Shown one piece after another: positions 959 through 59,656 of a stretch of DNA of 64,000 nt. The stretch covers positions 21,979,172 through 22,043,171 of the forward strand of contig JARFYF010000063.1 in assembly GCA_030265395.1 (NCBI GenBank). Reading direction: 5' to 3'. Numbering within the stretch: position 1 is the first letter of the stretch; the number at the start of each line of letters is the position of its first letter. The DNA comes from Rhina ancylostomus. Taxonomy: Eukaryota. The translations under genes were made by a program, and so were the position numbers. Below the pieces are notes generated by a model. It saw only the letters and a program-made list of their open reading frames with translations, did not search any database and had not been told where the DNA came from.

Positions 959-1063
959 AGTTCTGACAAAAGGTCTCAGACCTGAAACGTTAACTCGGTT
1001 TCTCCTTCCACAGATGCTGCCTGACCTGCTGAATGTTTCCAGCAATTTCTGTATCTATTTCAG
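959..1063 (+). mobile_element. Penelope-like element (PLE) terminal repeat with a degenerate minimal hammerhead ribozyme
   Basis: agtt-CTGACAA-a-aggtc-tca-gacct-GAAA-cgt-t-aact, followed by cacagatgctgcctgacctgctga; same family as the tail of the GIY-YIG element at 14335-15473. Confidence 0.75.
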
Positions 1064-1499
1064 TTTGCATGTTTTTGATTTTCATCCTTTTTTTACAGTA
1101 CTGGTATAAAGCTGCTTAAAGTGGCAGGTCATATGTGGGATTAGTATTCTAAAACAAGAAAGAAAATTAGATTCTGACAGGACACACAACGTAAACAATA
1201 GGGACATAAAATTGGTTTGCCTTCCTAATTATTTGCAGCACCTGCATGTCAACTTTCAGTGAATTGTGGTGAGCAGGGGGAAGAAGTGTAAGGGAATTCA
1301 CATCATACTTATAGGTGCTGGAAAAAAAAGATAAGCCACTGATAATTTTTGGCTTCCATGCAATCAAGATAAATAACATCCCCACTCAAGTATCAGCTAC
1401 TATCCTTAACAAAGAAGACAAACTGTAATGATTCTGAAAAAGCAGTTTTTGGTTGGGAGGGTGGTGAGAAATAGGGCATCTGTTGACCTTTTCATCTGC

Positions 1500-2330
1500 T
1501 GTTATCACATGCAACGGGGCCAATCAGGTGACACCAGTGAGGTCAACATGGCACAGGACCTGTCAGTGGGATAGTCTGCTCAGTTCCATTGTGTGTTCAT
1601 TATGGTCAGAGCAAAGGGTTAAAGTACAACACATGCTCCAGCCATTAGTCTAAGATAGAAAGCTGGTGAGTAACAGGTCATAGGTTACAGCCAGTTATCT
1701 CCCTCTCTAACTTGTGCCCCTTTTCTAATATTTCAGCAGGTGTACACACTTCTCAGGAATAAAGAGGAAGAAGAAGAAGAAGAAGAAGAAGAAGAAGGCA
1801 GTACATGAAATGAACCTTCATTTGAACTTGGTACTTGCAGGTGCCAGCACTACACTTGGAAGAACTGCAGTACCTCTTCACCCAACAAGGTGCAAGGGCT
1901 GCAGAATAGCATGGCCCAGGAAAAAGCCGACCTGAAGGAGAGCTCGCTCCCAACCCCAGCGGAGGCATTGTGTGCCCACCAAGCTGAAGAAAACTAACTG
2001 CAATCCACAGGAACTTTCCTAATGCCTCAGACTGCATTCCAGCAAGACTGGACACAATGCCACACTCCGGCTCTAACTTGTGCGCTATGTCTATGCATTT
2101 ATTTGAGAACATACAGTCACCACAGAGTGACTACAGGAGGATTTACAGCTCTGGAACCTTTGGCAACGCCTCCAAAAGCTTTGCTTTTAGCTCAATTACA
2201 GAGTTTTGGCTGCAGAGTCTGCAGAAGAGAATGGATAGGGCTTCCAAGAGCTCTCAGCACATTTGCCTCTTATTTTCATGCCAAGTACGCTGAGACTCAG
2301 ACCCGCTGAGGTTTGCACTAGCTCTGTAGC
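1500..2330 (+). mobile_element. Highly degraded PIF/Harbinger Myb/SANT-like gene remnant (downstream exons)
   Basis: Acidic tract followed by LNLVLAGAST and KLTAIHRNF...MPHSGSNL; layout resembles the clearer copy at 45600-46730; contains stops and frameshifts. Confidence 0.3.
1767..1796 (+). repeat. (GAA)10 microsatellite
   Basis: Perfect trinucleotide run. Confidence 0.95.
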
Positions 2331-2426
2331 GCAGGCCATGCCAACCTCTCATTCAGTTTTCACACAAGTTGGGTCAACTGCTCCAGCCAAGGTCAAGTTA
2401 TAGCTGGGTCAATCTTAGTTAACCTG

Positions 2427-2560
2427 AGTCCAGGTGAAGGATCTCAACCGGAAAAGTCAACTGTCTATTTTCCTTCACAGATGCTATCTGACCTGCTGAG
2501 TTCCTCCAGCAGTTTGTTTTGTTTTTGCTCTGGGTTCCAGCATCTGCAGTCTCTTATGCC
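2427..2560 (+). mobile_element. PLE terminal repeat fragment
   Basis: cagatgctatctgacctgctgagttcctccagc...ccagcatctgcagtctc; hammerhead core degenerate. Confidence 0.7.
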
Positions 2561-55939: not shown

Positions 55940-56260
55940 CTTTTTAATTCATTTACAGGATGCTGGGTTTGCTGGCAAGAGCAACATTCATTGCCCAACC
56001 CTAATTACCCCCGAGAATGTTGTGGTGGTCACCTTTGTGAGACACTGCAGTCTGTGTGGTGAAGATAATCCTGCCATGTTCCTTGGCTGTGAATTCCAGT
56101 GCTTAGACCCAGCAACAATGAGGCAACAATGATATATTTGTAAGTCAACTTGGAGGAGAACTTAAAAGTGATGTTGTTCCCATGTACCTGCTGCACCCCA
56201 GTCCTTCAGCTGGTGAAAGTTATAAATCTGGGGGATGTTGTTAAAGAATATTTAATGAGA
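55940..56260 (-). mobile_element. LINE 3' end, same family as 31700-32145
   Basis: gctggcaagagcaacattcattgcccaaccctaattaccc...gaattccagtgcttagacccagc. Confidence 0.65.
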
Positions 56261-57859
56261 TACAGTATATCCTAGCTTTGACTACCATAAGCTTGAGTCT
56301 TGAATGTGCTCTAGAGTGCTGGATGGCAGGTTGATCAAAGAGTCAGTTAAAATGCAAGGATGATGTCCATCATGCTTGCTGGTTTTTCAAGTGACTGAGG
56401 AGCCTGTTCTGGGTATTCTTCTGCTGTAGGGACATATTGTGGCTTGGGAATATAAATTTGCACCCCTTGGTTGGTCCTCTTCACCTTCCTTCACCATTAC
56501 TATTCCACCTCCTAATTGATTTGAGAGTCATTTGACTCCCAGAATTTAACACAAGCATCACTGGCAGAAGCCCTCAAGGGTTTTAATGCAGTATCTGTAG
56601 ACTAACATCGGAAGAGAGTAGGAAAGCCCAATAAACACAGACCATCAGCAACATTGTCATAGCTTGAAGAAGGAACAATTGATGCAGCTGACTCAGTGCT
56701 GGACTTCTTCGTCAATGATAGCCCATCATGAGAGGTGACTGACAATATACAGAAAGTGCTCTACCTACCGCAAAGCGAACCCTATCTATAGATAGTTGAA
56801 GGGATGTCTAACTAGCTTGTGGAAGATTGGTGATGAACTTCTGTCTTGGCAATGGTCAAGGACAGGTCAATTCTTGTATAAGAAGCATTAAAGAGATCAA
56901 CAGTTGCTTGCAGAACATGTGCAGAATGAGCCAGCACACAACAGTTATCCACAAACTGAAGTCATCAATATCCTTGGTGATGATCCTAGATTAAGCCTGT
57001 AAGTTGACAATACCCACCTCCAACATACATTTATCAGTTACTTAATGACCAACCAGCAACTAGGCATCTGAGGTAGTTTGTGGGGTGTGGGGGAATAAGT
57101 AGGGATGAGATAATATCCATTTTACTGCAATGTCTGATTAGGGAAGGGTTGGAATTAAATGAATATTCTGTGGGAACATGGTAATCTGGTACCTCTGCTA
57201 GGTACATTCAAAGAGACTAAAATATTGCTAAGAGCCAGTCAGCAAGCCCTGAATCATTAGAGAGCCCTTGAGAAAGATTTTATTCGGAGGTACAACAAAT
57301 ATCAAATACTTGACACCTATCTGCAGGTGAGACAGAGTGTTTATGGTTTATTTGGGTGTCCAGACCAGAAGTTTGAAATAATGTACCAGTGCTCCATGCT
57401 GATCAACTGCACTGTCATAAACAGTTGAAAAGCTGGGGTGCAATATTGGTGGTCTTTGGTTCTTGTTCTCCTGAATTTGAAATCTTCTACTCAGGAAGTT
57501 GGTGTACCCTTTAGCCAAACTCTTTAAATAGAAATGGTCCAGGTTACACTGGTGAAGCTTCTTGGCAACCCAAATAATAGAACCTAGCTAATGAAGAGTC
57601 AAATATTTGAATAAAAAGGGGGTGCTTCAAAGAAAGAAGGAAATATATATACTGGCATATCAGGATGAACCAATGAGACAGTGAAATATTTCGAAGTGTA
57701 GCCACCATTTGAAGTCTAGGAATTCTGATAGGTGATTTGTGCACAGCACCTTCCCTCAAACAATAATGTGATACCTATAAGTGATAGCAGTATCATAGTA
57801 GACACTGGAATAACAACTACTGGATTATAGCAACAAATTCAACTAATATCCCAACTTTA

Positions 57860-58640
57860 ATATGAGGAAAGAACCTCAAAGTGCTTCACGGGAGCATAGT
57901 CAAAATAATTTGTTATTATTAAGACAACTGTTAAAAGCTTGATGAAAAAAGTATACTTTAGGGACCATCTTAAAAGGGGAAGGTAGAGAAGCAGTGAAGT
58001 TCAGAAGGAATTACAGATATCAGACTTTTGGCAGCTGAAAGCACATGCAAATCAGGTACAGTGCAGTGATCATATTCAGGGATGGGCATAAAACCAGAGT
58101 TAGAGGACTGCAGATATCTTAGGAAATTACATTGTCAGGTTGAAACAAGGAAGGTATTTGAGCATAAGGATGATAACTTTGAAATGATATCATTGTTAAA
58201 CTGGGAGCAGGTGTTGCTCAGTTAACACAAGAGTGATGGATGACAGGACTTGATGCAAGTTGTGACAAGTACTGCAGATTTGGGACGGGCTCAAGATTTT
58301 AAGGGATAAAATTAAGGAGATTAGCCAGAAGAGCATTAGAAGATATAAGAGACTACAGATGCTAGCATCTGCAGCATCAAACAAGAAGGTGGAGGAACTC
58401 AGCAGGTCAGGCAGCATCTGTGGAGGAAGATGGATGGTCAATGTTTTGGGTCAAGACCCTTCATCTGAACTAAAAGATAGAGAGGAGATAGTCCAGTAGA
58501 AAAAGGTGAGGGGAAGGGGAACAGCAAGAGCTGGCAAAAAATGGGTGGATTGACATGAGAAGAGTGACAGGCAGGTGCAAAAGGGAAGAGTCAAAATAGG
58601 AAGAGTCAAGTTCAGAGTGACAGTGGCATGAATTGAGAAT
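57860..58640 (-). mobile_element. L2 LINE 3' fragment interrupted by a PLE
   Basis: caaagtgcttcac...aaaagcttgatgaaaaaag...gccagaagagcattagaa, then the PLE, then gagtcaagttcagagtgac. Confidence 0.65.
58343..58600 (-). mobile_element. PLE 3' end inserted into L2
   Basis: ggaggaactcagcaggtcaggcagcatctgtgg; minus-strand core cagatga-a-gggtc-tt-gaccc-aaaa. Confidence 0.8.
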
Positions 58641-59552
58641 TAATTTCTCCAACTTTTTATATGCTGGGGACAGAGGTCCCTCTGTGGGCAGGATAAACCA
58701 CCAGCTACCATCCATCTGAGAGAGGGGTGGGGCAGGTGGAAGGTGAGCCCCAGTGATCCAGTTTCATGCCCACTAATGGGAGATTGGGAATTTGGTGACC
58801 CCACAATCGTGTCAGGATAAATGGATTTGACTATAAAGACCAAGAGGTTGCATTCGCGTACCGCCATNNNNNNNNNNNNNNNNNNNNNNNNNNNNNNNNN
58901 NNNNNNNNNNNNNNNNNNNNNNNNNNNNNNNNNNNNNNNNNNNNNNNNNNNNNNNNNNNNNNNNNNNTGAACAACTGCTGACATAATTAGGCACACCACT
59001 GTTACCAGCAAAGTATCAGATGTACTAAGGTGAATGACACACGGTGAGGCCCACCTAACTTACTGATAGGGTGGCTTCACGCAGAAGTGACCACTAGCAT
59101 CATCCAACCTCTAGGTAGCTGTGTTTCTATTTTAATACATTTAAAGTGAACATTGAATCCATTACTGACTGCATCAAATTGATCATTTCTCAGCAGAGGG
59201 ACACATTTCCAGAGTTGCTTTGAAAGGTAGTTCCATTGCTTCAGCAGTATCTTGGGTGCAAAATATGAGCATGCTTTGACCACCCCACCTCACCCCAAAA
59301 AAAAATTGTCATACACTAACACAACGAGGGAAAGGACACTGAACAAGGAAAGGAATCAGTGCAGCAGTACAGTGGCAGCCTCTGGAATTATGCTGCTTGG
59401 TTGACAGAAAGTTTGACAGAAAAGTTCCTCTCTTTGATGGTTATGTTAGTCTAAATATCAAATCACAGATTTTCATGTGCTTCCACCCTGCCCCCCCCCC
59501 CCCCACATGTGCTGTTTCCTCATGGTGTACTTTCAGGGTCAGTATATATTAA

Positions 59553-59656
59553 AGAAATAAAAGCCAGAAAATGCTGGAAATACTCAAGAGATCAGGCAGC
59601 ATCTGTGGAGGCAGAAACAGAGTTAACATTTCAGGTCAATGACCTTTCATCAGAAT
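59553..59656 (-). mobile_element. PLE terminal repeat with an intact hammerhead core sequence
   Basis: Minus strand: tt-CTGATGA-a-aggtc-att-gacct-GAAA-tgt-t-aac (plus 59623-59655). Confidence 0.8.

Follow-up and report, generated by a model that had tools for sequence, protein, structure and literature searches.

Minimal hammerhead ribozymes in the pseudo long terminal repeats (pLTRs) of Penelope-like elements (PLEs) were described in 2014, including those of fish Neptune elements (PMC4209133), and were reported there from fish Xena, Poseidon and Neptune, with 4,000–9,000 in each of the coelacanth and Xenopus genomes; the searched parts of that paper do not name cartilaginous fish. Dispersal of these motifs as solo or opposite-strand copies (PMC4209133) and the inverted copies and tails of PLE insertions (PMC8557442) are also known. 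We analysed a 64,000-nt stretch of the Rhina ancylostomus assembly (contig JARFYF010000063.1; this whole stretch is called the window, and coordinates are positions within it), in which a first-pass annotation had noticed a dispersed repeat of this kind. With a probability of about 0.85 we consider its copies to be decayed pLTR end pieces of Neptune-type PLEs, which carry a mostly broken minimal type I hammerhead and likely arose when reverse transcription began within the pLTR and proceeded as far as the RNA 5′ end.

Compared with the PLE motifs as described in the searched parts of PMC4209133, the repeats share the type I order, a palindrome at 15.1–16.1 with no helix III, an extra nucleotide after position 9 and a short helix I, as well as the division into several consensus families and the occurrence mostly as solo copies or opposite-strand pairs; they differ in a stem II of 4–5 bp, in an N17 that is often U, in amplified lineages with the core changes U4A and A9C, and in number, with some 10^5 sites including decayed copies. 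The green anole Poseidon element PAc (Frangieh et al. 2024, PMC11167929) is similar in that, as far as the consulted sections of that paper go, its hammerhead lies in the pLTR, two start sites of the reverse transcriptase (RT) define a 30–40 nt tail, insertion in vitro does not require catalysis and no RNA ends are found at the cut site. However, the open reading frame (ORF) of PAc begins inside the hammerhead, whereas in the most complete element recovered here (L144, described below) the first in-frame ATG is ∼135 nt past the motif, and the present element has a CX2-5CxxC linker of Neptune/Nematis type. The endonuclease (EN)-bearing PLEs of the Neptune clade, in the parts of their description that we compared (Craig et al. 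2021, PMC8557442), have the same C-terminal GIY-YIG domain, zinc-finger-like linker and DKG motif, and the same partial tandem pLTRs, inverted 5′-truncated copy and one-sided tail (30–40 bp); our own placement as Neptune-type is a probable one made from motifs and not from a tree, and Nematis shares the linker. Non-LTR retrozymes, according to the consulted part of Li et al. (bioRxiv 10.64898/2026.07.22.740005), also have a PLE-derived type I hammerhead and occur in one sampled chondrichthyan, but they form head-to-tail tandem arrays, whereas the copies here are dispersed, solo or head-to-head. Our literature search, which did not extend to Repbase/Dfam or supplement files, found no paper on this PLE hammerhead family in cartilaginous fish.

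Four window copies were used as BLAST queries, and a profile built from genome copies was then run on the window. It recovered all 13 sites that the annotation had listed (19 matches at E<0.01) and gave no match in the reversed window. In a genome sample of 120 ten-kb stretches, placed on large contigs at round coordinates (1,021,341 non-N bases; small contigs and N-masked DNA lie outside it), the profile found 263 copies at 195 sites, with 98 of the 120 stretches positive and no match in reversed controls. Hence the proposed density of about one site per 5 kb holds genome-wide, and the proposal of a high-copy PLE terminal repeat with a minimal hammerhead, an extra nucleotide after A9 and a palindromic ACGU is confirmed by the genome copies and by the majority sequences of four subfamilies. 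Extrapolation would give a total of a few hundred thousand sites, decayed copies included. The exact pattern CTGATGAA-N12-14-GAAACGTT, which spans both core halves, has 1371 genome matches compared with 10 in the backwards control, and a wider pattern has 5153 compared with 0. Neighbours within 300 nt are head-to-head in 50 cases and same-strand in 10; no tandem head-to-tail arrays were seen in the sample, and no genome-wide tandem search was made.

The type I order is visible at 959–995, where stem I (959–962/992–995) encloses the core (963–969), the extra A (970), stem II (971–975/979–983), GAAA-CGT (984–990) and N17 (991). Most window copies are damaged and not intact motifs, however, and the strict CUGANGA...GAAANNUH pattern has a single window match, 59653–59625 on the minus strand, in which AUGU replaces ACGU and stem I is 2 bp with a pair probability of 0.01 in fold prediction. 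Copy 959 itself has G8 changed to A, likely by CpG decay of CUGACGA; the copy at 58467 has U4A and G12A, A9C is found in the copies at 14462 and 55377, the former of which has also lost the palindrome and has a broken stem II, and the CUGANGA half is missing from those at 7311, 27730, 37594 and 54257. The Rfam hammerhead models that had been suggested as a check found nothing in the window, none of the 17 Rfam matches at E≤10 being to a hammerhead family.

Mixture clustering of 246 of the 263 copies, using columns outside the motif only, gave four subfamilies: A (AGUU/AACU, N17 U, 3-nt loop), B (AGUC/GACU, N17 C), C (A9C, GUC/GAC) and D (CUGAAGA). The full core order, the extra nucleotide, the palindrome and both stems are present in all four majorities, and the type I order is present in L144 as well. 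The extra nucleotide between 9 and 10.1 is A in 0.91 of 170 copies, and the palindrome at 15.1–16.1, which stands in place of helix III, is ACGU with CpG decay to AUGU or ACAU. Covariation of stem II had been reported between window copies, and the letters cited at 971, 59633 and 58448–58459 are indeed present, but they represent a between-subfamily difference plus CpG decay. The 10.1–11.1 pair is G-C in L144 and in B, C and D, although CpG decay has altered it in many copies, and in A it is G-U in 32 and A-U in 20 of 72 copies; we rejected A-U versus G-C as a copy-level covariation (p=0.02 overall, none within subfamilies), and U11.1 in B–D is mostly CpG decay. Subfamily A closes stem I with U-A and B–D close it with C-G (Fisher p=4e-4 overall), with no significant association within any single subfamily. 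Because an equally strong association with this column is shown by diagnostic columns that are unpaired, the statistic reflects descent. The covariation predicted for a genome alignment is thus found as pairing-preserving changes between the four source subfamilies but not within them, and what counts is one or two source-level stem changes that preserve pairing, which are few independent events. Among 33 copies selected by their core, 78.7% of cells were paired compared with 15–45% when the alignment was slid, and their covariation, driven by the stem I closing pair, was reached by 4 of 500 shuffles. Divergence from the subfamily majority was 14.9% in the core (219/1470) versus 13.2% at downstream invariant positions (885/6692), and median identity to the majority was 79–87%. 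A strict core was kept by 11 of 127 motif-spanning copies, and core plus ACGU by 3 of them. The genomic copies are unselected fossils in neutral decay, and most are broken.

The annotation had taken the segment at 14335–15473 (minus strand) for the autonomous partner of these copies. It cannot be this partner, because it is an endonuclease-only fragment whose GIY-YIG part is interrupted by in-frame stops and by two or more frameshifts. Its stop codon TAA is at 14966–14964, its linker reads CKRRNCNTC (CX2-5CxxC), and its untranslated region (UTR) is 490 nt long and pyrimidine-rich; upstream it borders an N run (15474–15695), and the DNA past this run belongs to another repeat (family D13). Relatives of the remnant are 68–76% identical over their main matches and mostly 5′-truncated. 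Pfam, searched in three frames with X at the stops, gave no family; the remnant was identified by pairwise comparison with the endonuclease part of L144 (65% over 75 aa, with a second frame also matching), and it belongs to the parent family.

L144 (positions 1–3287 of a separate 3.3-kb contig, C2762) was obtained by a protein search with an RT piece. Its order is the EN end, a 3′ UTR, an intact motif at 925–961 and then a 738-codon stop-free frame with the RT motifs DKG (ADKGG), DVQSLYTSIP, GVAMG and YIDD. The Pfam matches, RVT_1 with E 4.6e-5 and GIY-YIG with E 2.3e-4, lay slightly under the curated cut-offs, and CKRRRCYTC precedes the EN domain. The ends of the contig overlap by 77 nt, and its end joins its start, in frame, in three of four other runs; across this join L144 is a 3210-bp unit with a 917-codon ORF by arithmetic, a single ORF containing RT and C-terminal GIY-YIG. 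The motif is therefore located in the pLTR, between the EN end and the next ORF in L144 and after the EN remnant in the window (14323–14474). Hence the family has an autonomous-type parent, and the window copy at 14335–15473 is not that parent. L144 keeps its CpGs (observed/expected 0.66 vs 0.18), and no close copy of it was found in the assembly, the best being 76–79% identical. Its word share was 0.84–0.85 in runs that carry the labels of six different organisms, with >99% identity in the four compared, which would fit a collapsed young family or close kin, recent horizontal transfer or contamination alike.

Where the copies end is informative for how they were made. Among the 263 copies of the sample, 42 run into the UTR, 205 do not and 16 could not be classed; 156 of the 205 UTR-less copies begin in model columns 1–44, and most short copies begin at stem I, ∼33 nt ahead of the cut site. 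The cut site itself was ruled out as the 5′ end, since only 5 of the 205 begin there. In a boundary set of 91 solo and 83 UTR-bearing copies, drawn from random loci together with pattern- and PLE-selected loci, the family letter at +1 (A) is found in 0.64 of solo and 0.78 of UTR-bearing copies (background 0.30) and the letter at −1 in 0.47 and 0.76, respectively, while −2 and −3 are near background in solo copies. Of the 83 UTR-bearing copies, 29 have the word TWWAWW between −35 and −26, with 0–2 per bin farther upstream, but among the 91 solo flanks it occurs in 8, which is the background level. Moreover, YYCA(+1)GT at stem I resembles an initiator. The 5′ start at stem I together with the upstream TATA-like word suggests that stem I marks a transcription start. 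On the other side, 3′ ends peak near model columns 120 and 160, ∼35–40 nt apart, and, of 45 close inverted pairs, 31 combine a long arm with a short one.

We propose that the parent RNA would begin at the A of the CAG that opens stem I, with an initiator-like sequence there and the TATA-like word 25–35 nt upstream. RT would start at one of two pLTR sites ∼100 and 140 nt downstream, as anole Poseidon does in vitro, and its run-off at the start of the RNA would leave solo pieces of 100–140 bp, while priming from both cut strands would give inverted pairs of which one arm bears a tail. Any cleavage by the hammerhead, after N17, would be confined to the parent RNA and would need dimer formation or the aid of a protein, and inactivity is predicted for the genomic copies. 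Contigs of putative RNA runs cover the pLTR; they cannot reveal starts, ends or strand.

Several observations weigh against this proposal. The 5′ boundary tapers and is not a single base, the boundary set mixes locus types, and some UTR-bearing copies in it are classed as solo. Exact flanking repeats of ≥8 nt were found at 7 of 45 pairs compared with 50 of 1980 in the control, and L144 is only a candidate for the active parent of this genome, its best assembly copy being 76–79% identical. As many as 79 of the 205 UTR-less copies begin in columns 19–44, which RT stalling at stem II would also fit; and the pyrimidine tract, A-rich word and CAG could just as well represent a branch point followed by a 3′ splice site. 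In D. virilis, moreover, the consulted parts of two papers describe a Penelope intron that ends at helix I and a TATA-less promoter (PMC4209133, PMC2377424).

The shared 5′ end could then be a 3′ splice site, or a place of RT stalling at the hammerhead hairpin, instead of a transcription start, and this is the alternative that survives best, though we regard it as doubtful. Stalling is favoured by predicted folds in which stem II is stable. Splicing is favoured by the pyrimidine tract with CAG at stem I and the A-rich word at branch-point distance, and by a donor-like CAG/GTAAC that overlaps the stop codon of the ORF in the majority of 46 EN ends (e.g. window 14962–14973, minus strand). L144, however, has no donor GT at its ORF stop, and solo copies retain the AG without a shared upstream exon. 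A genome search for the join of ORF end to hammerhead gave seven matches, which were six unspliced UTR ends of subfamily D and one solo copy; the EN end was directly upstream in none of the seven, and no spliced retrocopy was found. A GT..AG join ending at 926 was likewise in none of the 15 joints listed, of 55, for the contigs of putative RNA runs.

Another reading takes the short unit as a non-autonomous element resembling a short interspersed nuclear element (SINE), which would re-amplify from its own transcripts through the PLE protein. The 205 of 247 classifiable copies without UTR and ORF, their regular ends and their subfamily-specific letters would agree with such a unit. The same core variants, however, also end UTR- and EN-bearing copies, solo copies lose the upstream TATA-like word to background level, and internal initiation of the kind described in the consulted part of PMC11167929 accounts for the unit alone, which makes a SINE-like unit improbable. 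Still less credible is that the dispersed copies are working ribozymes under selection that cut host transcripts. A few thousand copies are exact in the core and parts of stem I (the 5153 matches), and 50 neighbours are head-to-head; but the core decays as fast as its flanks and is seldom strict, covariation is absent within subfamilies, opposite-strand neighbours are unable to form a same-strand dimer, a same-strand copy lies within 1 kb in only 21 of 139 cases, and single minimal motifs were uncleaved in vitro according to the consulted part of PMC4209133. A chance resemblance in an unrelated repeat, with which the short stems and the lack of an Rfam hammerhead match in the window would agree, has almost no prospect of being right, as all four subfamily majorities show the full core order with both stems, the palindrome and the extra nucleotide, and an RT/GIY-YIG element carries the motif in its pLTR.

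The core variants that were amplified bear on what the hammerhead is for. A hand tally of the first 100 of the 5153 matches gave CUGAUGA 40, CUGAAGA 33, CUGAUGC 15, CAGAUGA 11 and CUGAAGC 1, and when position 4 was forced to be non-U it was A in 88 among the first 100 of 249 matches. U4A and A9C are each linked with their own downstream words, thus these variants sat in source elements. Core changes usually cut hammerhead activity strongly, and some natural variants work (PMC3088659); the consulted text of that paper does not name U4A or A9C. The amplified variants fit the report, in the part of PMC11167929 consulted, that catalysis is unnecessary for insertion of the anole element in vitro, and given the U4A and A9C source lineages cleavage may be dispensable. 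A tentative extension is that a promoter of TATA plus initiator in the 3′ UTR would start the RNA at the first base of stem I, so that the transcript would open with the motif as its outermost 5′ structure, and that cutting would be unneeded for transposition, as U4A/A9C lineages amplified. If this is true, the thousands of copies from these lineages would show in vivo that transposition does not depend on cutting by PLE hammerheads. As a family the repeats add little, because PLE minimal hammerheads are already described and the copies are fossils; their value for the question of what PLE hammerheads do is modest, and consists of natural core variants that were amplified in source elements, a 5′ boundary that maps elsewhere than the cut site, and L144 as an ORF-intact Neptune-type unit that could be assayed like the anole element.

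The copies in the window are of several kinds. Solo pLTR pieces lie at 950–1069 (plus; motif 959–995, subfamily A type, both stems kept, G8A), at 2420–2573 (plus; long 3′ end, with core, stem II and palindrome broken) and at 59560–59660 (minus; the only strict core, 5-bp stem II, AUGU and 2-bp stem I). Head-to-head pairs are found at 7295–7471 (7376–7295 minus and 7377–7471 plus, without the CUGANGA half), at 26108–26267 (26176–26108 minus and 26185–26267 plus, heavily decayed) and at 52530–52694 (52625–52539 minus and 52630–52694 plus, CUGACAA in both cores); the first is flanked by a 10-bp direct repeat, likely a target duplication. A short inverted tail piece accompanies two copies, with 49501–49415 minus joined by 49489–49527 plus (49415–49527 in all) and 54276–54364 plus joined by a minus piece (54252–54364, CUGANGA half absent). 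The PLE remnant consists, on the minus strand, of the 3′ pLTR at 14323–14474 (core 14462–14436, A9C, stem II broken, palindrome lost), the pyrimidine-rich 3′ UTR at 14475–14963 and the dead C-terminal part of the ORF at 14964–15473, with the CX2-5CxxC linker and GIY-YIG remnant. Two more minus-strand pLTRs have a pyrimidine-rich UTR remnant ahead of them, at 55266–55390 (A9C core, 55377–55351) and 58331–58488 (U4A and G12A, core 58467–58441). The decayed copy at 27714–27901 (minus) is interrupted by a GA-rich simple repeat and has no CUGANGA half, and that at 37603–37700 (plus) adjoins an N run and begins near GAAA.

Other repeats and frames are also present in the window. Decayed 3′ fragments of long interspersed nuclear elements, presumably CR1/L2-like, lie at 42493–43060, 44728–45230, 47415–47535 and 3000–3500; Pfam gave no family for two of their ORFs. 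A 118-codon open frame at 32883–33236 (minus), the later part of which looks like a host exon, also gave no Pfam family. At 26538–26603 there is a short near-perfect hairpin with arms of ∼30 nt that resembles a miniature inverted-repeat transposable element, and its matches to microRNA families are chance matches below the gathering score. Two near-identical (TA)n/AC/TTTA microsatellite blocks surround a 100-N gap at 20667–20933 and are likely an assembly duplication. Finally, a 360-bp repeat is present as two inverted copies ∼89% alike, at 21598–21958 and 39277–39637.

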